Below are positions 2-31,897 of a stretch of 34,508 bases of DNA, piece after piece (the stretch's first letter is position 1; every line of letters begins with the position of its first letter). The position numbers were made by a program, and so were the translations under genes. Below the pieces are notes generated by a model. That model did not search any database. It was not told where the DNA came from and worked only from the letters and a program-made list of their open reading frames with translations. Location: assembly GCA_001003385.1 (NCBI GenBank), contig LCPA01000004.1, forward strand, positions 1 to 34,508, given 5' to 3'. The stretch is from Microgenomates group bacterium GW2011_GWF2_47_9. Its GTDB lineage: Bacteria > Patescibacteriota > Microgenomatia > UBA1400 > UBA12108.

Positions 2-337
2 CAAATCCAAACCATCGTCAGAAACGCCAAGAGTGTTTCAAGCTGTGACTCAACCAACGATTCGCTGAGCTTCATTGGACCCGACGGCTACACTACCACC
101 ATCTCCCTCGACACCGATGTTGCTCGGATTGCCTCTGTTTCTGCCGCTTATGCAGGCTACCTAACGCCAGCTGACCTAGAAATACCTTCATTCAACATTA
201 CCTGTAGCCCCAACGACTCAGCCCCAGAGTTGGTCTATCTTGATTTTAGTATCAAGAAAGCCAATAACGACGGCGCTCGTTCCTCTGAAGATCCCGTTCT
301 TTCCTTCAAATCCGCCATCCAGTTTCGAAATAACTAG
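2..337 (+). CDS. 3' part of a probable minor pilin/pseudopilin (5' end outside window)
   Basis: Open frame read manually from base 2 (QIQTIVRNAKSVSSCDSTNDSLSF...FNITCSP...SFKSAIQFRNN*), TAG at 335-337. Not in the ORF track because it has no start. The 'VRNA' helix end, Cys pair and terminal 'FRN' strand resemble CPR pilin-like proteins. Converges on pilD. Confidence 0.6.
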   Translation, partial: QIQTIVRNAKSVSSCDSTNDSLSFIGPDGYTTTISLDTDVARIASVSAAYAGYLTPADLEIPSFNITCSPNDSAPELVYLDFSIKKANNDGARSSEDPVLSFKSAIQFRNN

Positions 338-1122
338 CCCCAATAATGGAGAATTTTTTCTCCCCAAAGTAGTGTCAGCAATAGCCCAAGTACCATAAAA
401 GGCGCGAAGGGCAGGGTCTGACCAAATTTTTTCTTTCCCGTCATCAAGGCCAAAACGCCGACAACCGCGCCGAGGACAAACCCTCCCCAGATCCCCAAAA
501 GCGTTTTTGGCCACCCCAAGATCAACCCGATAAGAAGTGCCAACACCTCATCCCCTTCACCCATCCCTTTACCCAAAGTCATTTTTCTTAAAGAATAGAA
601 AAATAGGTACGCTCCCACAGCGGTCGCGACAGATTCTCCAAGGTCAGCCCAATGATAAGCTCCCCCCGTTATCAAGATCAACCGGTAAATCAATGTAGTT
701 GCTACCCCAAAATAGACATATCGTGTTGGAATCAAACCATAAAACGCATCGCTAGCCGCAATCATAATGAGAACCACCCCCACCAAGAGCCAATACAAAG
801 GCTGTAGGGTCGCCAAGGGGTGGGATGCCAACCGGAAAAAGAAAGCCCCAACCGCGATCCACCACACAAATAGCGCCCCCACCAACAACTCTACAATCGG
901 GTATTGGATACTAAGGGGCTTGTGACAGCACCTCGATCTTCCTCGATATAGCAAATACGAGAAAATAGGGACCATATCGTACCAACTTAGCTGTTTATGG
1001 CAATGATCACATCTGGACCTACCGGAGACCCAGCTTTTGGACTCTACTGTCCGCATCACAACCACATTCAAAAAACTCCCAACCGAGGCTCCCAAACAGA
1101 ACATGAGTATGTAAACTAACAT
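334..1122 (-). CDS. pilD: Prepilin peptidase/N-methyltransferase (A24 family)
   Basis: GSFLNVV..R, RSRCDHC and RSRCC Zn motifs, GMGEGD catalytic Asp motif, terminal PFAPF, multiple TM segments. ATG at 1122 preferred over GTG 1128 because TAGAAT lies 6 nt upstream. Confidence 0.95.
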   Translation of the reverse strand: MLVYILMFCLGASVGSFLNVVVMRTVESKSWVSGRSRCDHCHKQLSWYDMVPIFSYLLYRGRSRCCHKPLSIQYPIVELLVGALFVWWIAVGAFFFRLASHPLATLQPLYWLLVGVVLIMIAASDAFYGLIPTRYVYFGVATTLIYRLILITGGAYHWADLGESVATAVGAYLFFYSLRKMTLGKGMGEGDEVLALLIGLILGWPKTLLGIWGGFVLGAVVGVLALMTGKKKFGQTLPFAPFMVLGLLLTLLWGEKILHYWG

Positions 1123-1160
1123 ACTCACATTCTAATTCAATTACTCAGTTTAGGCTAATT

Positions 1161-1817
1161 TTAGGGTAGACAAATCATCTCGCCGGTGCCACCCGTAAAT
1201 ACGGTCGGGTACGTAGCCTGCGATGCCGCTTGTGGGCAAGGGCATGCGTCTTCTGTTGTACAAAATGCCGTCACTCCTGTCGCCGCAAAGTCCGCTCCCC
1301 AGGTCCCGGTTGCACATCTGTCAAACGCTTCCTTCTGGAAAGAACTCGACTCGGGCACAAAGCATGCCGTCACCGCGGGACCGGCCGACTCATCGTTATA
1401 ATAAAGGAAGATCTCTCTTGCCGAACTACCAGTTACTCTGTCAATAAAACTCGACTTCACTTCACTTGTTGTCGTTAGTTCTGCCAATCTGGTCGCCAAA
1501 GAGACCGTCTGATAATCACCTGTCCCGGCTGGCAAATTACCTGACTGGATCGACAAAAAGGGTACATCTGCTGTTGCCGCTACTACTTCATCATCCTCAC
1601 CAGACTGCCATGGGAAATACCCAAGTGACGCATTATAGCGCTCGAGTCCCGATACAAGCTGAGAAGAATCAGATCTTGTCCTCGTGTCTCTTCCTTTTCT
1701 AATTTGCTCCAACGGATTCAAAGTCGCAAGTAGTGCAACCGCCAAAATTCCGATTACCGCAATGACCACCAACAGCTCGATCATCGTAAAACCTTTTCGT
1801 AGATTAAATTTGAGCAT
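1161..1817 (-). CDS. Type IV pilin, probably the major pilin
   Basis: Class III signal KG|FTMIELLVVIAVIGILA with E5, followed by NPLEQIRKGRD. Six Cys in the C-terminal half. Strong SD (GGGAGGT) upstream. Confidence 0.92.
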   Translation of the reverse strand: MLKFNLRKGFTMIELLVVIAVIGILAVALLATLNPLEQIRKGRDTRTRSDSSQLVSGLERYNASLGYFPWQSGEDDEVVAATADVPFLSIQSGNLPAGTGDYQTVSLATRLAELTTTSEVKSSFIDRVTGSSAREIFLYYNDESAGPAVTACFVPESSSFQKEAFDRCATGTWGADFAATGVTAFCTTEDACPCPQAASQATYPTVFTGGTGEMICLP

Positions 1818-1820
1818 AAC

Positions 1821-1871
1821 ACCTCCCTTTTGCTATACATCCATATCATCATTCTGTCGACACTTTGTCAA
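1821..1871 (-). promoter_or_regulatory. Pilin upstream region: SD GGGAGGT (1821-1827) and TTGACA -35 (1866-1871)
   Basis: Read directly. The -10 at canonical spacing is poor (TGATAT/GATGAT), so the promoter call is tentative. Confidence 0.45.
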
Positions 1872-1886
1872 TACGCAAGACCCAGT

Positions 1887-3086
1887 TTAGAAAGTACTAG
1901 TCAAGTTATAAATCGGCACTACAATCGCGACAATCATAAATCCGACCCCAAGCCCTAGCACAATCATAATAACCGGCTCCATCGCAGTCGAGAGGTTTTT
2001 GATCGCATGCTCACTCTCAATCTCAAAATATCCGGCGACCCTGTTTAACACGTCATCCAGTTTCCCGGTCTGCTCCCCGACCGATACCATCTGGGAAACC
2101 AATAATGGGAAAGCCTCGTGTTTTGCGAGCGAGGCGGCTAATGAATTCCCTTTTTCAACGTCCTTCCCGACAACGCTTAGCGCCCGGCTCAACACTTCGT
2201 TATCAACAACATGCTTTACGATCGACAATCCTTCAACCAGCGCAACCCCCGCGCCAGCCAAAAGTGCCAAGGTCCTCGTAAACTCGGCCATGAGCGTCAT
2301 CAGTTTGATCTTGCCAAAAATTGGCAGTCTAAACATCAATTTGTCATAGATTAAAGCCCCAGCCGGAGTTTTCTTCCACATCTTAATGAGGTAGGCAATT
2401 ACAAAGACTGCCGGGACTCCCAAATACCATGTATTAGCGAGAAAATCCGAAAAACTCATGAGTAGCTTGGTAATGACAGGGAGATCCGCATTAAAGTCCT
2501 CATACATTGCCGTCAGTTTCGGCAAAACAAAAATCATCATCACAAGTCCAACTACTAACATTCCCACGAGTACAATGACTGGATAGATTAGTGCTCCCTT
2601 CGTTTTCGCCCGAAATTCTCGTTGTTTCTCCAGGTTATCCGCCAAACGCACCAAAATGGTGTCAAGTACGCCCGCCGCCTCACCCGCCCGCACCAGAGAT
2701 ACATATACTTTCGAGAATACCTCTTCGTGCACAGCCAGTGCATCAGCAAAAGTCGACCCTCCCTCAATCGCCTTCAAAACCTCGCTCAACTTTTTTTGCA
2801 AGGCCGGTTGGCTCTGAATCTGCAGAATTGACATTGCATCCGTCAATGGCAAGCCCGCCGAAATCATGGTCGAGAGCTGGCGGGTAAAATTAACAACATC
2901 ATCAAACTTAATTTTCTCGCCAAAACTTAGTATCCCGCGCCCTGTCTGGTTTAACTCATGCAGTTCGATGATAAAAAGTTTTTGATTGCGAAGAACCTCG
3001 ACTGCCGCTTGCTGATTTTGTGCCTCAACAACCCCCTTGCGGTCCACCCCGTCGTGCGTCTTGGCTTTAAAACGAAAACGCATCAT
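1887..3086 (-). CDS. pilC: Type IV pilus platform protein PilC (T2SS F family)
   Basis: FTRQLSTMISAGLPL, GEAAGVLD, ALIYP, GEQTGKLD and EP-x-MI repeats of two T2SSF domains. Confidence 0.95.
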   Translation of the reverse strand: MMRFRFKAKTHDGVDRKGVVEAQNQQAAVEVLRNQKLFIIELHELNQTGRGILSFGEKIKFDDVVNFTRQLSTMISAGLPLTDAMSILQIQSQPALQKKLSEVLKAIEGGSTFADALAVHEEVFSKVYVSLVRAGEAAGVLDTILVRLADNLEKQREFRAKTKGALIYPVIVLVGMLVVGLVMMIFVLPKLTAMYEDFNADLPVITKLLMSFSDFLANTWYLGVPAVFVIAYLIKMWKKTPAGALIYDKLMFRLPIFGKIKLMTLMAEFTRTLALLAGAGVALVEGLSIVKHVVDNEVLSRALSVVGKDVEKGNSLAASLAKHEAFPLLVSQMVSVGEQTGKLDDVLNRVAGYFEIESEHAIKNLSTAMEPVIMIVLGLGVGFMIVAIVVPIYNLTSTF

Positions 3087-3088
3087 TA

Positions 3089-4150
3089 CTATCTCTCCCT
3101 CGCCAATAACCTATTTAATTCCTCGAGGTTCATCGCGTACTCACGCGCTGTTTCCATTGTCACCCGTTTCATCCGGAAAGCCTCCGCTAGAGCCATTTCC
3201 AAAGTCCTCATCCCGACATCCCCCGAAGTCTGCATCACATTGGTCAACATATGTGTTTTCCCATCTCTTACCGTCGAGCGAACTGCCGGCGTCGCAAGTA
3301 GGATCTCGACTATCGCAGTTCTTGCATTGTCAACCGATGGGACCAACCTCTGGGCCAACACAGCCTCAAGCACACTTGAAAGTTGAGATCTGACTTGCGC
3401 TTGCTGATCTTCTGGGAAAACGTCCACGATCCGGTCGATTGTCTGGGGAGCATTATTGGTATGCAAGGTGGCAAAGACCAAATGTCCCGTCTCGGCAATG
3501 GTAAGGGCCGCCTCGATGGTCTCATAGTCCCGCATCTCTCCAATCAAGACCACGTTCGGATCTTCCCGCAGGACGCTCTTTAAAGCCACATCCCAGGAAT
3601 GCGTATCGGAGTGCAACTCTCGCTGGGAAATAAGGCTCTTTATTGGTGTATGGACAAACTCAACTGGGTCCTCGATCGTGACAATGTGTTCCGAGCGTTC
3701 TCGATTTATTTTGTCTATCATCGCGGCCAAGGTCGTTGACTTTCCGTGGCCGGTCGGCCCCGTTACAAGTACCAAGCCCTGTTTCAAACTGGTCAGGTCG
3801 CCAATTATCTTCGGCAGTCCCAAGTCCTCGATACTTTTGATGTTGGGAGGAACAAAACGCAATGCCGCCGCCACATTCCCTTTTTCATGATAGGCATTTA
3901 CCCTAAACCGCTCGCCAGACGTAAGAGAATAAGAAAAGTCTAGTTCTCGATCAACATTCAAAAGTTCTCTCTGCTGTTCCTCCAAGAGGGGATTCAGCAT
4001 GGTTTTGAGTGCCTCCGGCGTCAAAATTGCGCTCTCCGGGACCGGGACCAGCTTCCCATGGAACCGAAGATATGGCTGAGAACCCACCATCAGGTGGACA
4101 TCCGAAGCCTGATACTGCACACACATTTTGAGTATTTTTTCTAAATCCAT
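3089..4150 (-). CDS. pilT: Type IV pilus retraction ATPase PilT
   Basis: ASDVHL, Walker A GPTGHGKST, TIEDPVE, LREDPNVVLIGEMRD, TGHLVFATLHT and an AIRNLIRE-like AVRSTVRDGK. Confidence 0.95.
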   Translation of the reverse strand: MDLEKILKMCVQYQASDVHLMVGSQPYLRFHGKLVPVPESAILTPEALKTMLNPLLEEQQRELLNVDRELDFSYSLTSGERFRVNAYHEKGNVAAALRFVPPNIKSIEDLGLPKIIGDLTSLKQGLVLVTGPTGHGKSTTLAAMIDKINRERSEHIVTIEDPVEFVHTPIKSLISQRELHSDTHSWDVALKSVLREDPNVVLIGEMRDYETIEAALTIAETGHLVFATLHTNNAPQTIDRIVDVFPEDQQAQVRSQLSSVLEAVLAQRLVPSVDNARTAIVEILLATPAVRSTVRDGKTHMLTNVMQTSGDVGMRTLEMALAEAFRMKRVTMETAREYAMNLEELNRLLARER

Positions 4151-4189
4151 TTTTTTGTCCCCCTTTTACTTTACACTTTTTTTACTTTT

Positions 4190-5905
4190 TCAAGTATGCG
4201 CGACCCGCATCACTTCCTCGATCGAAGTAATGCCTTCCAAAGCCTTAAGATATCCATCCTGTGTCATTAAAACCATCCCGTCTAGAACAGCCGCTTTCTC
4301 GATCTCACTTGCCGGCGACCGCTCCAAGATGAGCTTCGCCACCCGCTCGCTGACCCGTAGTACCTCAAAAATCCCAATCCTTCCCTTATAACCAGAGTCG
4401 CCACACTTCTCACACTTCTTCCCTCGATAAAGCGTAATCGGCTTTCCCCCACTTGTTGAAACAAATGAATCAAACAATGGCCCTAACACACTCTTCAACT
4501 CCTCAACTAGTGGGGCAGGGGGGGTATAGGATTCCTTGCAGTCCTCACAAATCTTGCGCACCACCCTTTGCGCGACTACACACGTGATCGAGCTAGCAAG
4601 AAGAAACGGCTCGGCCTGCATATCCAAAAGCCTTGGCAATGCCCCAGAGGAAGAATTCGTATGCAAAGTCGAGAAGACCAAGTGTCCCGTCAAACTAGCC
4701 TGGATTGCCAAATCTGCAGTCTCGTTGTCGCGAATTTCACCGACCATGATAATGTTGGGGTCCTGTCGCAAAAACGACCGGAGTCCACTTGCAAACGTCA
4801 AACCAGCCTTAGTATTGATCTGCACTTGGTTGACCCCATCCATCTGGTACTCGACAGGATCCTCCAAGGTTACGATGTTTACTTTGGGTGTGTTTAAGAT
4901 ATGCACAAGCGAATAAAGGGTAGTTGTTTTGCCAGAACCAGTCGGACCGGTAATCAATATAATCCCGTGTGGGACCCTGACTGATTCCTCCAAGTTCTTT
5001 AGAGCCGCCGCCCGTAACCCCAAATCCGATAGGGTAGGGACATTCCGGCTTTTTCTCAAAAGCCGCATCACAATCTTCTCTCCATCAACGGTCGGCAAAC
5101 TCGACACACGCAAGTCAACCTCCTGCTCATCTGCCAAAAAAGTAAACCTGCCATCTTGAGGTAATCTCCGCTCATCTATTTTGAGACCCGACAAAATCTT
5201 CACCCGCGACACGACCGCCTCATGAACTCGCTTGGGTAAGACAAGTTTTTCCTGCAAGATTCCGTCAATTCTGTACCTGACCCTGGTGTGATCCTCCAAA
5301 GGCTCGATATGGACATCGCTCGCCCTCGCATTCATGGCAAACTCAAGCACCGTCGCCACAATTTTGGCAATCGGCGCCTCCTTAATCACTTCCCCGATCT
5401 TAGTCACGTCAACAATTCGTTTACGCAGACCATCATCCTGGTTTTCCTTCAGTACCTGGCTTACCTCAGCCGACAAGCTTTGGGCATAGCGATGCGGAAT
5501 CTCCTCGACAAGCTCGCTTTCCATGGTCATGAATGGCTTAACCTTGCTCCCACTCTTTGCCTCCAAGAACGCGATGGTTTGCAAATCCAAAGGATTTGCC
5601 ATCGCAACCGACAACAAGTGTGTTTTCACATCATAAGCAAAGGGCAAAACTTTGTAGCGGATCGCGACCGACTCTGGGATCTTCGATAATGCCTCTGGAC
5701 TCGATGCCAAACCAGCCAAGGTCATGTAGGGGACATTAAACACCTTCGCTCTTGCCTTCACGATCTCCGCTTCATCGATCAGTCCAGATGAGAGCAATAA
5801 ATCGTCAACCGGAGTTCCGCTCTTTAAGCTTTCCTGTTTCAGGCGTTGGTAATTTTCCTCACTAAGCAAACCGTCCTTATGAAGAACGAGGGCAAGATCT
5901 TGCAT
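4190..5905 (-). CDS. pilB: Type IV pilus assembly ATPase PilB (GspE/PulE family)
   Basis: ASDVHIEP, RLPQDGR, GPTGSGKTT, LRQDPNIIMVGEIRD, Zn motif CEDC..CEKC, GYKGRIG, degenerate MshEN-like N-terminus. ATG 5905 preferred over TTG 5941. Confidence 0.95.
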   Translation of the reverse strand: MQDLALVLHKDGLLSEENYQRLKQESLKSGTPVDDLLLSSGLIDEAEIVKARAKVFNVPYMTLAGLASSPEALSKIPESVAIRYKVLPFAYDVKTHLLSVAMANPLDLQTIAFLEAKSGSKVKPFMTMESELVEEIPHRYAQSLSAEVSQVLKENQDDGLRKRIVDVTKIGEVIKEAPIAKIVATVLEFAMNARASDVHIEPLEDHTRVRYRIDGILQEKLVLPKRVHEAVVSRVKILSGLKIDERRLPQDGRFTFLADEQEVDLRVSSLPTVDGEKIVMRLLRKSRNVPTLSDLGLRAAALKNLEESVRVPHGIILITGPTGSGKTTTLYSLVHILNTPKVNIVTLEDPVEYQMDGVNQVQINTKAGLTFASGLRSFLRQDPNIIMVGEIRDNETADLAIQASLTGHLVFSTLHTNSSSGALPRLLDMQAEPFLLASSITCVVAQRVVRKICEDCKESYTPPAPLVEELKSVLGPLFDSFVSTSGGKPITLYRGKKCEKCGDSGYKGRIGIFEVLRVSERVAKLILERSPASEIEKAAVLDGMVLMTQDGYLKALEGITSIEEVMRVAHT

Positions 5906-21777: not shown

Positions 21778-22911
21778 ATGAAAAGATTCCTCCTACTCCT
21801 ATTGGGATTCTTATTCCTCTTATTATTTGGGCATTCTCGCCTCGACAATAGTGACCTGCCTATTGCTGATTCTCTTGACTATCTTTCTACCCCCAAAAAC
21901 TTTAGGGTTGAAGTTCTAAGTAACAAAGTTGTCGGGGCTCGCAGTCTCACAAAAAGCAGAGATGGAGTCATCTACATTGGAACTCGCAAAGAAGGGGTTG
22001 TCTATGCGCTATATGATTCAAACGGCGATACCATACCAGACAAAACTCAAGTTGTCATAAGTGAACTCAATAGCCCAAACGGAGTTGCCTATCACAACAA
22101 AGACCTCTACATCGCCGAAATCGATCGGGTGATCGTTTTGCGAAACATCGACGAGAATTTCCAAAATAGCCCCAAATACGAAATAGTCATTAAACAACTT
22201 CCAAACTCAGAACACCACGGTTGGCGATATCTCAAAGTTGGTCCCGACTCAAAATTGTACCTTAGTATCGGCGCACCTTGTAACGTCTGTGAACTCAATT
22301 ATCCCCTTGGTTCGATAGCTAGAATGAATCTAGATGGCTCAGATTTTGAAGTAATCGCGACCGGGATCCGCAACAGCGTTGGCTTCTCCTGGTCACCCCT
22401 GGACAATTCCCTATGGTTCACCGACAATGGACGAGACTGGCTCGGAGACAACGCCCCGGCCGATGAACTAAACCATCTGTCAGGCACCACCAATAATTTC
22501 GGCTTTCCTTATTGTCATGCGGGAGAAATCCTGGATCCTATCTTTGGGAAGGGGAGACAATGTAATTCCTACGCCAACCCTGCGATCAAGCTCGCCCCCC
22601 ACGCCGCCGCACTTGGCATAACATTCTATACCGGTAGTATGTTCCCAAGCGAATACAAACAAAAAATTTTTATCGCTGAACATGGCTCCTGGAACCGAAA
22701 AGAGCCAATCGGGTATCGCATCACTACTGTAGAACTAAAGGATAATCAAGCAGTAAACTACGAAGTCTTCGCCGAAGGGTGGCTAGACAAATCAGGTAGT
22801 CCCCTTGGCAGGCCGGTAGACATCCTAGAAATGAATGACGGCTCACTCGTCGTCTCAGACGACCTCTCAGGCACGATCTATCGTATTATCTACTCCTCGC
22901 TCCCAGAATGA
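21778..22911 (+). CDS. Sorbosone dehydrogenase-like / PQQ-dependent sugar dehydrogenase (beta-propeller), exported
   Basis: N-terminal signal/anchor, HHGWR, GAPCNVC, GIRNSVG, DNGRDWLGD..P.DELN, FGFPYCH, HGSWNR, GRPVD, SDD. Confidence 0.88.
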   Translation: MKRFLLLLLGFLFLLLFGHSRLDNSDLPIADSLDYLSTPKNFRVEVLSNKVVGARSLTKSRDGVIYIGTRKEGVVYALYDSNGDTIPDKTQVVISELNSPNGVAYHNKDLYIAEIDRVIVLRNIDENFQNSPKYEIVIKQLPNSEHHGWRYLKVGPDSKLYLSIGAPCNVCELNYPLGSIARMNLDGSDFEVIATGIRNSVGFSWSPLDNSLWFTDNGRDWLGDNAPADELNHLSGTTNNFGFPYCHAGEILDPIFGKGRQCNSYANPAIKLAPHAAALGITFYTGSMFPSEYKQKIFIAEHGSWNRKEPIGYRITTVELKDNQAVNYEVFAEGWLDKSGSPLGRPVDILEMNDGSLVVSDDLSGTIYRIIYSSLPE

Positions 22912-23846
22912 AATTTCTCGTGCACCCGCCTCAACTGTGGATTTGTGACATGAGTATAAATCTGCGTTGTTGCGATATTCTTGTGTCCCAACATCTCCTG
23001 GACCTCTCTTAACCCCGCCCCATGCGAAATCAAATCAGTCGCAAAAGAGTGTCGCAGGACATGGGGCGTTACCGAAAAGGGCAGGTGGGCCAAACGTCCG
23101 TACTTGGCAATTATTCTCTGGACAGATCTGGTAGTCAGCCGGAGTCTTGCCCCCTCCCTAACTTCATCAATCGCAGGTTTACGACTGTGCTGTATAAAAA
23201 CCGGGGCATAGTGGTCATTTCGCTCTTTCAAATATCGCTCGATCCAATGGCAGGCGCGAGAAGATAAAAATACGACTCTAATCTTTTTGCCCTTCCCAAC
23301 TACCCCAAATTCTCTAGTTTCCAAGTTCAAGGTCACCTTATTAAGAGAAACCAGTTCCGACACCCTAAGGCCCGTTGAAAACAACACCTCCATAATCACT
23401 CGGTCACGCAAACCATAAATCGTCGAGACGTCAACTGCCTCCATCATCCTTGAAATAGAATCAAAATCCATAAACTTGATCGAGTGGTCTTTGCCTTTAG
23501 GCAACTCTAACCGCTCGGGGCTCACCACCTCGTAATCTTGCCGCACCAAATACCTAAGCATGGATCGAATCGCAATTACGTAATAGCCCTGGGTCACGGG
23601 GGCCAAAAACTCTCCCCGTTCGTTCTTCCGGTTAGCTAAATAGAGTCGGTACTGCTTAAGCATTTTGGGAGTGACCATCTCCATCCTCGCAACGTGGATC
23701 TGTTTCTTAAGCCAGTCGATGAAGGTAGTTAAGTACAGTCTGTAATTGCGAACTGTGTAAGGCGAGACTTGACGCTCAATAGTTAGGTACTCGAGGTACT
23801 CATCAACCAAGTCCTCTAATGCAGATGATCTGGACTTATCACTCAT
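22890..23846 (-). CDS. Xer-family (XerC/D-like) tyrosine recombinase
   Basis: N-terminal SAM-like YL..ER..S.YT.RNY. Intact catalytic set: GLRVSEL (R), GKGKK (K), HVLRHSFAT (H-x-x-R), LGH, TTQIYTH (Y). Confidence 0.93.
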   Translation of the reverse strand: MSDKSRSSALEDLVDEYLEYLTIERQVSPYTVRNYRLYLTTFIDWLKKQIHVARMEMVTPKMLKQYRLYLANRKNERGEFLAPVTQGYYVIAIRSMLRYLVRQDYEVVSPERLELPKGKDHSIKFMDFDSISRMMEAVDVSTIYGLRDRVIMEVLFSTGLRVSELVSLNKVTLNLETREFGVVGKGKKIRVVFLSSRACHWIERYLKERNDHYAPVFIQHSRKPAIDEVREGARLRLTTRSVQRIIAKYGRLAHLPFSVTPHVLRHSFATDLISHGAGLREVQEMLGHKNIATTQIYTHVTNPQLRRVHEKFHSGSEE

Positions 23847-23969
23847 ATATACCTGACTGCTAGAGAACTAGAATTAAATTTGGACCTGGTATATCCATCC
23901 TTTTTATACATACACATCTGGCACACATTCCTTAGTCATAAGTCCCTGTCCTATAGTGATATTAGCTAG

Positions 23970-24676
23970 TATCCTATAATAAAAGGGTAGGGAACATCAG
24001 CATGAGCATAAGAACATTGTGCGACATCATTCATTATCTGTCAACCAGGGACCTGCAAAGACAGGCTAGTTCCCCTCCAAACGCCCGATACTACCAGAGG
24101 TAGAGGCTGTAGAATCAGTTTTCTGCCACATAAACCTGCAGTCCCAACCTCTTTCAGGGCAAAAAACGAAAAAAACTTCGGTAAAACTTCGGAAAGGCAA
24201 TTTTTGGGATCCACGAACAGATGGGGGAATAATACGCACGTAAAATAGGGGTAACAGAATTAAACCGGAATTATTTTCAATTTATAAATGAAAAAAAATA
24301 ATCTTGGCCTCCCTACTCGTTCCAGGTTATATGTCATAAAAGATATATTGTGCGACATTGTCTAACCTCTTACCCTGTCGCCTTAGTCCCACTAAAAGGG
24401 CATAAGGGCCGACAAGCGAGATTAGGTTAACAACTTAACTCCATCCATCCCTCACTATTCTTTAAGCTAGTATTACTTATCGCGAATCTATCTCCTGAGA
24501 CAAGACCCCCTCGCGCGGCCAGCCCCCTCTAGCACTCAGAACTACACACCTGCTGAGTAAATATGTTTAACAGTACAAACTATATCATTCAGTTTTACAA
24601 AGATCGGTTCCCTTTTATGCACATTTCGTGAAAATATTATAGGATATATGTGAAAAACGTGATTTATTATAGGATA
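23970..24676. repeat. Perfect 14-bp inverted repeat TATCCTATAATAAA (23970-23983) / TTTATTATAGGATA (24663-24676), with extra TATTATAGGA copies at 24635 and 24682
   Basis: Read directly from the sequence. Confidence 0.85.
24016..24358. repeat. 12-bp direct repeat ATTGTGCGACAT (24016-24027, 24347-24358), resembling a dif arm
   Basis: Exact copies. The reverse complement ATGTCGCACAA resembles the E. coli XerC arm GGTGCGCATAA. Confidence 0.75.
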
Positions 24677-24694
24677 AATAATATTATAGGACTA
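24667..24694 (-). other. dif-like 11-6-11 site TAGTCCTATAA-TATTAT-TTATCCTATAA
   Basis: ATAA-N6-TTAT core. The left arm resembles the Firmicutes-type arm ACTTCCTATAA. Lies ~820 bp upstream of the Xer gene. Confidence 0.5.
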
Positions 24695-24729
24695 TACCCT
24701 CCCCTCCCCCAGATACACAACCCGTTTTT

Positions 24730-25599
24730 CTAGATCGACCACCGCACCAAAACTGTTGTAACTATGACCGCAAGAACGATAAGTGCAAACCCCATATATT
24801 CCTGTACTGTCCGCTGGAAAAGCCGCTTGTCTAGATCCTGCTGAAAGAGCCCAAGGATGACATACATCATCATCGCAAGCATAATGCTCGCAAGCGCTAC
24901 ATCAATAAGCCAAAATGACAAAGCCAAGCTTGCCTCCGCTACCACACTAGCACCCATTAGGCTATATATTAATTCACGTGTTCCCCCTTTCTCAGAGAGA
25001 GTATGTGCCCATACCCCCTGATAAAACAAGAGATAAGAGAGTCCAAACACCGTCAGAGTGATGGCATAGGCAGGTAACCGCAAAGAAAACACGACGTGGT
25101 ATATAAATGCCGCGGTAAGTACCGTAAACAAAAACCCAACCGCCCTGGCCGCCCGCAACAACTGAATAGTTCTTATTGATGCCACCGAGAAAATATTCGC
25201 AGTCAAAAGGAGTGCATACATCGAAATCGCAAAAATTATAATGACTCCGATCCGCACCACAAATGCCTGGGGTAGTAAAAAATAAAAAAGGGCCACCGAG
25301 ACGGGGTAAAGTGTCGGCAATATCATATTGCTAAACCAGGCAACCCCTCGCAAATCCCGGAAAAGCGCCCAAGCAGCCATCAAATACGAAAGTCCCAAAA
25401 AACCGATCATCGCCAGATATCTACTCTCAACAGAAATTCGCTGAATGACAAAAAGTCCCAAAGACAACGCCACCGCCACAATCACAAACTTGCGCCTCTT
25501 TGTCAAAATCGTTTTTATCGTTCGCTTGTCGCGGGCAAGCTCCCTTCTTGGAGTCACTTTTGCCTTCGGCACCCATATTCGGTTATCACCAATTCCCAT
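24730..25599 (-). CDS. Conserved polytopic membrane protein (possibly DUF5656-like)
   Basis: ~9 TM segments with N(I/V)FSVASIRTIQLLRAA motif. Overlaps the yebC 3' end. The start is uncertain, and the family name is from recall. Confidence 0.7.
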   Translation of the reverse strand: MGIGDNRIWVPKAKVTPRRELARDKRTIKTILTKRRKFVIVAVALSLGLFVIQRISVESRYLAMIGFLGLSYLMAAWALFRDLRGVAWFSNMILPTLYPVSVALFYFLLPQAFVVRIGVIIIFAISMYALLLTANIFSVASIRTIQLLRAARAVGFLFTVLTAAFIYHVVFSLRLPAYAITLTVFGLSYLLFYQGVWAHTLSEKGGTRELIYSLMGASVVAEASLALSFWLIDVALASIMLAMMMYVILGLFQQDLDKRLFQRTVQEYMGFALIVLAVIVTTVLVRWSI

Positions 25600-26305
25600 T
25601 AGAATACACCTCCTGCACGTCATTGTGCTCGCTCAAAATATCAAGTAATTTCGTAACCATCTCAGGATTTTTTACCTCAACTCTCATTTTCTCCTTATAG
25701 ATAAGATTTGCCTCAACACTTAAGACTCCTGGATCTCGTTCGGTCTTTTGAGCAATGAGGGTGAGATCCGCCGGCTCTGTATAAACAACAAAAAGTCCTT
25801 CCGGTGTTTTTTCAATATCAAGAGCTCCCATCTCAATAAGTTCAAGAGTCAACGCCTCTTCTACCTTGCCTTCGATCAAAATCTCCCCACGCTTATCAAA
25901 AAGATACATGACAGACCCTGGCTCCCCCAGATTCCCCCCACCTTTCTCCAGAATGTTCTTGATCTCGCTCACCGTCCGGTTGTGATTATCGGTGACCGCC
26001 GAAATTACAATCGCGACACCGTCTGGTCCATACCCTTCTAAGATAATCTCCTCGACTACCTCACCCTTACCTGTCCCCATCCCTTTTTCAATCGCCCGTT
26101 CGATATTGTCTTTCGGCATATTCACGCTTCTTGCCTTCTCGATCGCAAGACGTAAAGCAAAATTTTGCTCGGGGTCCCCCACCCTCCCACCTTTAATTAC
26201 CGCAACCACTATTGCGTTTGCCATCCTCGTAAACACACTTCCTTTTTTTGCGTCGGTAGCGGCTTTTTTGTGCTTAATCGTACTCCACTTCGAGTGTCCT
26301 GACAT
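25586..26305 (-). CDS. yebC: YebC/PmpR family protein
   Basis: MSGHSKWSTIKHKK, NMPKDNIERAI, EGYGP.GVA, TDN.NRT, DVQEVYSN. Confidence 0.95.
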   Translation of the reverse strand: MSGHSKWSTIKHKKAATDAKKGSVFTRMANAIVVAVIKGGRVGDPEQNFALRLAIEKARSVNMPKDNIERAIEKGMGTGKGEVVEEIILEGYGPDGVAIVISAVTDNHNRTVSEIKNILEKGGGNLGEPGSVMYLFDKRGEILIEGKVEEALTLELIEMGALDIEKTPEGLFVVYTEPADLTLIAQKTERDPGVLSVEANLIYKEKMRVEVKNPEMVTKLLDILSEHNDVQEVYSNGNW

Positions 26306-31813: not shown

Positions 31814-31897
31814 GCCGAGGTGGCGAAATGGTATACGCGTAGGTCTCAAAAACCTATGGTCTCAACAACCATGCGGGTCCGATTCCCGCCCTCGGCA
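31814..31897 (+). tRNA. tRNA-Leu(CAA)
   Basis: Acceptor GCCGAGG/CCTCGGC+A, anticodon stem TAGGT/ACCTA with loop CTCAAAA, long variable arm TGGT/ACCA, T-stem GCGGG/CCCGC. CCA is not encoded. Extended -10 TGGTAAAAT at 31796-31804. Confidence 0.93.

Follow-up and report, generated by a model that had tools for sequence, protein, structure and literature searches.

A probable chromosome-dimer-resolution locus with a 28-bp dif-type site near xer in a Microgenomates bacterium

The stretch of DNA analysed here, called the window below, comprises all 34,508 nucleotides (nt) of contig LCPA01000004.1 (contig C4) of Microgenomates group bacterium GW2011_GWF2_47_9, whose genome assembly totals 710 kb in 50 contigs and is 87.6% complete; the metagenome runs holding the stretch come from groundwater and soil. 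The window contains a gap of 883 nt (23847-24729) between xer, which encodes a tyrosine recombinase of the Xer family, and the gene pair DUF5656-yebC, both sides being on the minus strand. An open reading frame (ORF) scan found no ORF of at least 60 amino acids (aa) in the gap. The gap is most probably the chromosome-dimer-resolution locus of a Microgenomates-type bacterium of the candidate phyla radiation (CPR), and a 28-bp dif site would be its core. The site and the genes that enclose the gap are as follows.

24331-24358, plus strand: dif-type site of 28 bp, ATGTCATAAAA GATATA TTGTGCGACAT (11+6+11), recognised by its symmetry, conservation, copy number and linkage.
22890-23846, minus strand: xer, Xer-family tyrosine recombinase of 318 aa, assigned by Pfam and NCBIfam profiles and by linkage to the site.
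24730-26305, minus strand: DUF5656 gene (24730-25623) and yebC (25586-26305), assigned by Pfam and conserved as the right-hand neighbours.

The two arms of the 28-mer match as an inverted repeat at 8 of 11 positions around the 6-bp centre, and 17 of the 28 positions are, by eye, identical to the dif of E. coli as printed in PMC2731167. In the description of dif given by the review PMC5357621, the site spans ~28 bp and is composed of two 11-bp arms of partial dyad symmetry and a centre of 6-8 bp, a definition that the 11+6+11 anatomy fits. Of 21 loci of the same family, 19 match the inner 24 nt exactly and two have one difference there, and the flanks diverge immediately. With up to 3 mismatches allowed, 99 of the 201 genomes sampled from the order contain the 28-mer, 97 of them once and G021 and G118 twice; the window contains one match at this threshold, as does its own genome, and a reversed 28-mer used as a control gave no match in the 201 genomes. 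The changes among the variants fall mostly in the central 6 bp and the left arm. This pattern of a stable arm, a taxon-variable centre and unrelated flanks matches the one reported for proteobacterial dif sites in the corresponding part of Carnoy and Roten (PMC2731167), with one arm better conserved, a variable centre and unrelated flanks.

The gap sequence is single-copy within its own genome, which rules out a mobile repeat or miniature inverted-repeat transposable element. Its comparison with 61 genomes, including its own, gave matches in 38 (21 of 23 in its own family), arranged as four collinear patches. With the site as the reference for orientation, 26 of 30 loci of the order have xer to one side and 28 of 30 have DUF5656 to the other, with constant strands. 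The synteny of the window is kept in all 21 family loci; xer stands beside the site in 16 of these, and the remaining five end before xer. A wider sample of 80 Microgenomates loci was fetched via the recombinase protein and searched for the site at up to 5 mismatches and up to 2.5 kb upstream of xer, and the site was present there in 53 loci, in the usual orientation in 51 and in the opposite one in 2. Judged from these sequence comparisons, the Xer recombinases would bind the 28-mer and exchange strands at 24331-24358, resolving chromosome dimers and unlinking sister chromosomes.

Short polar words, of the kind known as FtsK-orienting polar sequences (KOPS), and a DnaA-box-like element were also found on the two sides of the site.

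23985-23992, plus strand: GGGTAGGG, KOPS-type polar word reading towards dif, the nearest plus-strand match, 348 nt left of the site.
24697-24709, minus strand: two overlapping GGGGAGGG words reading towards dif, minus-strand matches 364 and 369 nt right of the site.
24598-24632, plus strand: conserved block with the DnaA-box-like 9-mer TTATGCACA (24615-24623), found in the alignment of relatives.

The word GGGNAGGG, which is the KOPS word as given in the literature source consulted, occurs in the window and five contigs of the family 63 times on the plus strand and 5 times on the minus strand to the left of the site, and once on the plus and 25 times on the minus strand to its right; this polarity is present in spite of the C-richness of the plus strand to either side. 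In a blind scan of all 7-mers from which the locus itself had been removed, the top words were AGGGGAG (76 towards the site, 4 away), AGGGGAT (65 and 5) and GAGGGGA (63 and 7). Relatives carry GGGCAGGGGAG at the position equivalent to 23985-23992, and the C-rich run after the right-hand boxes described below (24697-24709) is present in relatives as well. The convergence of the polar words holds within the own family only. FtsK with a gamma domain is encoded in all five genomes checked, and a second Xer-like paralogue of ~285 aa, 23% identical, is encoded elsewhere. The G-rich polar words converging from both sides would guide FtsK to dif.

Within single contigs of the own genome, the polarity of the words flips at this site and at ~24 kb of contig C2, where dnaA (22512-23834) is followed directly by four DnaA-box-like 9-mers (C2:23859-23970); this cluster is likely oriC, and from it onward the polar words are one-stranded. 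The DnaA-box-like 9-mer to the right of dif reads TTATCCACA in most relatives, and a 9-mer of the GTT[AT]TCCACA type lies 160-460 nt right of the site, far from dnaA, in 27 of 30 loci of the order.

The GC skew of the window is negative throughout, with its best change point at 25,001 (-0.157 to the left, -0.285 to the right), and ~1 in 1000 of 2000 permutations gave an equally good one. Five family contigs extend 10 kb or more to either side of the site, and in all five the best change point falls 0.5-4.2 kb from it and runs in the same direction; two more family contigs had less than 2.2 kb on one side and were left out. Among nine genomes from other families, eight are less negative on the xer side and two show a true sign change; a tenth was too short to one side of the site to be used. 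The relative G025, a single contig of 1.05 Mb sampled over its whole length, has positive skew all round, with two bins at about zero and values of up to +0.31. The contigs of the own genome fall into two classes of absolute skew, ~0.1 and ~0.3. A uniform strand bias seems to be larger than the replication-linked part of the skew.

The recombinase encoded beside the gap is intact, as the sequence-only reading had stated: it scores 139 bits on Pfam PF00589 (Phage_integrase), carries a SAM-like N-terminal domain, and reaches 230.7 bits on the NCBIfam model of XerD and 229.2 on that of XerC. On the XerS model NF003462 its score is 117.4 bits, with the cut-off at 267. The complete relatives G025 and G074 encode two tyrosine recombinases each, and the own genome gives three hits. 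The third of these, G000:C6:19293-20066 (L027:1465-2238, minus strand), has 257 aa, lies directly upstream of a gene whose product by eye resembles TrmD, and scores 201 bits on the archaeal XerA/integron-integrase model, the cut-off of which is 220; it is present in the two family genomes checked and not in G025 or G074. Many public records encoding close relatives of the linked Xer (L119, L120, L124 and others) are titled Pseudomonadales or Gammaproteobacteria, labels that misfit their gene content. The elements predicted upstream of xer, and one further patch of the gap, are listed here.

24016-24044, minus strand: predicted xer promoter, with -35 TTGACA at 24044-24039, a 17-nt spacer and -10 CACAAT at 24021-24016, scoring 10/12 in the promoter scan.
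23847-24009, minus strand: predicted xer leader of ~160 nt, with a conserved block at 23855-23916 and two left boxes; its start is placed from the -10 at 24021-24016.
24087-24115, no strand assigned: conserved patch of 29 nt, ~245 nt left of dif, with 90-94% identity in 8 relatives.

TTGACA-N17-CACAAT is the best promoter-like site that the promoter scan gave in the gap, and it lies 300 nt from dif. An exact 12-nt direct repeat of the invariant dif arm, ATGTCGCACAAT (24027-24016), overlaps its spacer and -10. Of the 21 loci of relatives, 20 have the promoter element CA-TTGTGCGACA-N11-12-TGTCAA, and wherever the xer start is visible the element stands 170-272 nt from it. Of 73 wider loci, 58 contain a 10-mer of the dif arm (up to 1 mismatch) in the 420 nt preceding xer, and in 32 of the 58 TTGAC stands just upstream of this 10-mer. 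Because the -10 region of the xer promoter overlaps the invariant arm copy, Xer probably binds this arm and represses its own gene. A similar autoregulation is speculated for difSL-xerS in the relevant passage of Le Bourgeois et al. Of the inversion or autoregulatory switch that had been proposed for this gap from the letters, the autoregulatory part is thus plausible, the promoter carrying one arm of the site, and the inversion part failed on the evidence given below. A second dif copy left as a scar of an integrative mobile element exploiting Xer (IMEX) was considered and rejected, as only one arm is repeated (24016-27), this arm is part of a conserved promoter, and the window has no cargo separating it from dif.

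The leader block at 23855-23916 (query positions 9-70 of the alignment) is conserved in relatives. RNAalifold gave the leader a shared fold of -5.3 with trivial pairs only, four truncated rows (L002, L005, L006 and L026) of the 21 being left out of the alignment. The promoter and terminator scan found no intrinsic terminator in the gap, and there was no RNA run among the 17 runs containing the stretch. The interval from the promoter to the site is empty in the window (342 nt) and measures 480-1580 nt in relatives L004-L026, where it holds unrelated genes, among them those for a class-III aminotransferase, a family-2 glycosyltransferase, a response-regulator receiver, DUF5674, a weak match to alpha/beta hydrolases, and others. 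The promoter-to-dif interval is a slot of gene turnover.

The sequence-only reading had centred on a perfect 14-bp inverted repeat bracketing most of the gap, and this repeat is real. Its arms (23970-23983 and 24663-24676) have 14 nt each, are 100% complementary and lie 679 nt apart, and an outer extension of 16 nt (23948-23963 against 24677-24692) agrees at 81%. Five 10-mers of the form AYTATAGGAY make up the repeat; the left side has two of them, read on the minus strand, and the right side three, read on the plus strand.

23948-23957, minus strand: box L2 (ACTATAGGAC), AYTATAGGAY match.
23971-23980, minus strand: box L1 (ATTATAGGAT), AYTATAGGAY match and core of the left arm 23970-23983.
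24636-24692, plus strand: right box array of AYTATAGGAY matches, R1 at 24636-24645, R2 at 24666-24675 (core of the right arm 24663-24676) and R3 at 24683-24692.

These five are the only AYTATAGGAY matches in the window, for which dinucleotide-preserving shuffles gave a mean of 0.28 and 0 of 100 reached five. The 710-kb genome contains 16 copies, five of them in this gap; the 11 outside the locus compare with ~6 expected from the shuffle mean scaled up, and the idea that the boxes are a general promoter was dropped, since away from the locus the exact 10-mer shows hardly any enrichment. Each of the 21 aligned family rows has the left pair at this place in the xer leader, in the forms AACTATAGGAT and ACTATAGGG or TTATAGGAC. 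Right boxes are present in 1-3 copies (up to 1 mismatch) in all 21 relatives' loci, exact boxes occur in 20 of the 21, up to four of them, and boxes stand on both sides of dif in 17. All 62 exact boxes in these loci are oriented away from dif, 18 on the minus strand to its left and 44 on the plus strand to its right. The inverted arrangement is thus conserved, and the perfect 14-bp match is particular to this genome. The inverted repeat exists because the 10-mer boxes flank dif on both sides and always read away from it. On long host contigs the box is almost confined to this locus, and in other families a related TATAGG box lies 270-520 nt right of the site in varying orientation.

A switch of the Fim type, in which the adjacent recombinase would invert the 680-bp segment between the 14-bp arms and thereby connect or disconnect the xer promoter, agrees with several of these features. 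The inverted arrangement of the arms is real and conserved, the neighbouring gene encodes a tyrosine recombinase, and the xer promoter does lie between the arms and face xer (minus strand, 24044-24016), as had been suggested. In addition, the 28-mer is opposite to xer in two distant relatives, L131 (1573-1600) and L133 (2060-2087), which implies that inversions have happened in evolution, if rarely. In L131, however, the promoter arm is unflipped and the 28-mer flipped, so this event was not an exchange between boxes. The orientation polymorphism that such a switch should leave among relatives did not appear: the 21 family loci are all collinear, the 26 xer hits and 28 DUF5656 hits in the 30 loci of the order all share one arrangement, and 51 of the 53 wider sites keep their orientation. 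Nor did both orientations turn up in sequence data, as contigs from 4 runs bridged the left arm in 3 records and the right arm in 3, all in the reference orientation and with no strand-change joint; this check used assembled contigs, in which rare variants may be hidden, and one of the runs is possibly the source of the window. By eye the arms are unlike Xer site arms, the recombination site instead being the separate 28-mer in the middle of the segment, and the boxes of other families are not kept as inverted pairs. On the tyrosine-invertase models NF007370/NF007371 the recombinase scores 54-55 bits, with cut-offs of 221-222, against ~230 on the Xer models. A Fim-type switch is thus scarcely credible, and the boxes are not crossover sites.

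Each box contains a -10-like hexamer in both directions, and intergenic TATAAT of the own genome occurs most often within TCCTATAAT (11 of 110, 4 of them at this locus). Several other copies of the box have proper -35 partners and stand just upstream of genes. The 62-kb viral contig L249, which carries a family-specific dif variant, has six AYTATAGGAY boxes at 226-4989, all on the coding strand, two of them just upstream of a ribosome-binding site and start codon; the box core presumably recalls the promoters of single-subunit phage RNA polymerases. We put the chance that the boxes, the left ones lying in the xer leader and the right ones beside the DnaA-box-like 9-mer, are promoter- or operator-type elements at about one half, and that they are accessory sites or sites for a terminus protein at a quarter. 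It is also conceivable, if rather doubtful, that they are polar protein-binding sites that would form, together with the converging G-rich words and the conserved DnaA box, a compact symmetric terminus organiser around dif.

Several results weigh against the assignment of the gap to dimer resolution, or against the roles proposed for its parts. At up to 3 mismatches the 28-mer is missing from 102 of the 201 genomes of the order, including whole families (0/44, 0/9, 0/6 and 0/4). The word GGGNAGGG is uninformative in G074, with at most 2 occurrences per 20 kb, and makes no clean flip in G025. The skew of the own family steps at the site without a change of sign. The main downward step of G025, at ~455 kb, is ~106 kb away from its site at 348.7 kb, where there is only a small local step (0.211 and 0.175 on the two sides), and the skew steps up at dnaA; in G074 the sign switches at ~450-490 kb, ~270 kb from the site at 741.5 kb, which shows no clear local step. 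Kono et al., in the statement drawn on here, place dif within 3% of the skew shift point, and G025 and G074 do not fit this standard. The linked Xer falls below every NCBIfam equivalog cut-off, those of XerD and XerC included. As for the boxes, those at this locus are without a good -35 partner, and their promoter reading is drawn from the likeness of the hexamers and from one phage contig.

The displacement of the site from the main skew shift in G074 and G025 would also suit a 28-mer that serves some other purpose, as an attB-type hotspot for the attachment of phages or other elements or as a palindromic operator. The same reading could appeal to the genes, differing among relatives, that separate the xer promoter from the site, and to phage-like contigs that carry the 28-mer. 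In IMG/VR, 14 contigs have the full 28-mer without the host synteny. Six small ones were scanned: three gave a match to a Zot-like assembly ATPase, a fourth to a rolling-circle Rep, and a fifth to a Rep together with a weak head-morphogenesis match, the sixth being a tailed phage. Five contigs of 3.9-9.2 kb (L245, L247, L248, L251 and L254) combine matches to a Zot-like ATPase and/or a rolling-circle Rep with the 28-mer and have no integrase; judging by gene content, these five resemble filamentous phages and are candidate Xer exploiters of Microgenomates hosts. Roux et al. 2019 placed inoviruses in CPR hosts, and the available text of that paper makes no mention of dif. However, the use of true dif sites by integrating phages is known, as described in the section on this subject in PMC5357621. 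A site for another purpose is further opposed by its occurrence as one copy per genome, order-wide and beyond, with synteny of the housekeeping type, by polar words that converge and a skew step that coincides in six family genomes, and by the presence of the FtsK gamma domain; an operator would be expected at several promoters. We therefore consider this alternative improbable.

The four conserved patches in the 880-nt gap could also be the parts of a structured non-coding RNA. At ~24490-24560, between dif and the right-hand module, relatives carry 2-3 palindromes of the form CCAGA-N4-8-TCTGG, and the window has a different stem sequence there, CTCAG..CTGAG; a stem kept while its letters change hints at a hairpin or a dimer-binding site. 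Against an RNA, the spacing of the patches varies by more than 1 kb and protein genes are inserted among them, the leader alignment gave the RNAalifold value of -5.3 reported above, and the most conserved patch is explained as dif. At the gathering score, Rfam found in the window only a transfer RNA (tRNA), tRNA-Leu at 31814-31897. With E up to 10 it gave no family in the gap and two chance-level hits, and with E up to 0.5 it gave a single chance-level hit, to a long non-coding RNA, in 20 related loci. ARAGORN predicted no tRNA or transfer-messenger RNA (tmRNA) in the gap. RNase P is not in the gap, as it is located on contig C9. The tmRNA model gave only weak tRNA-like hits of 13.7-14.4 bits (cut-off 47) on the own genome, and no tmRNA gene turned up in this 87.6%-complete assembly. 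A structured RNA is very unlikely.

As a dimer-resolution locus, the gap can be compared with several known systems. It resembles XerC/XerD-dif with FtsK and KOPS in having a 28-bp site of two 11-bp arms and a 6-bp centre, one copy per chromosome, one better-conserved arm with a taxon-variable centre and variable flanks, two Xer paralogues, the FtsK gamma domain, converging words of the GGGNAGGG type, and exploitation by elements like filamentous phages. Unlike in that system, xer stays 0.5-1.6 kb from the site across an order, the xer promoter contains one arm copy, arrays of an unrelated box flank the site, the skew of the own family steps but keeps its sign, and the proteins score below the XerC/XerD equivalog cut-offs. 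In uniting a recombinase gene and its site in one genetic module, the locus is like XerS/difSL of streptococci and lactococci and XerH/difH of Helicobacter and Campylobacter. Those systems use a single recombinase, however, whereas the complete relatives here have two and the own genome three hits; the site here does not directly adjoin the gene, and other genes may intervene. In addition, difSL has 31 bp and an 11-bp centre according to its entry in PMC5357621, in contrast to 28 bp and a 6-bp centre here. By these comparisons of sequence the locus would not be a member of the single-recombinase systems.

The short inverted repeats that bracket a promoter beside a tyrosine recombinase gene are reminiscent of FimB/FimE-fimS, but here one orientation is seen, the recombinase is of the Xer type, and the repeats belong to a multi-copy box (two and three) and are not a single pair. 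A core site flanked by two boxes to one side and by three oppositely oriented boxes to the other recalls the arm-type arrays of lambda attP. The distances here are 300-1500 bp and variable, unlike those of attP, and the 318-aa Xer has, by its Pfam domains, no extra N-terminal arm-binding domain. A literature search, the supplements of Kono et al. and Roux et al. aside, found no paper on Xer/dif, chromosome dimer resolution or KOPS/FtsK in Patescibacteria/CPR.

The assignment, if correct, would tell where replication ends and where chromosome dimers are resolved in a large group of ultra-small, uncultured bacteria, for whose genomes GC skew alone is misleading. A convincing inverted repeat beside a recombinase gene need not be a switch. 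Three features of the locus stand out: an Xer gene whose promoter includes one arm of the target of Xer, boxes that occur almost only at the terminus locus, and a skew step without a change of sign. The shared site also links small contigs resembling filamentous phages to Microgenomates hosts. The terminus organiser, if true, might act as a minimal trap for replication forks or as a scaffold assisting Xer and FtsK, on a chromosome whose skew is of one sign all round.

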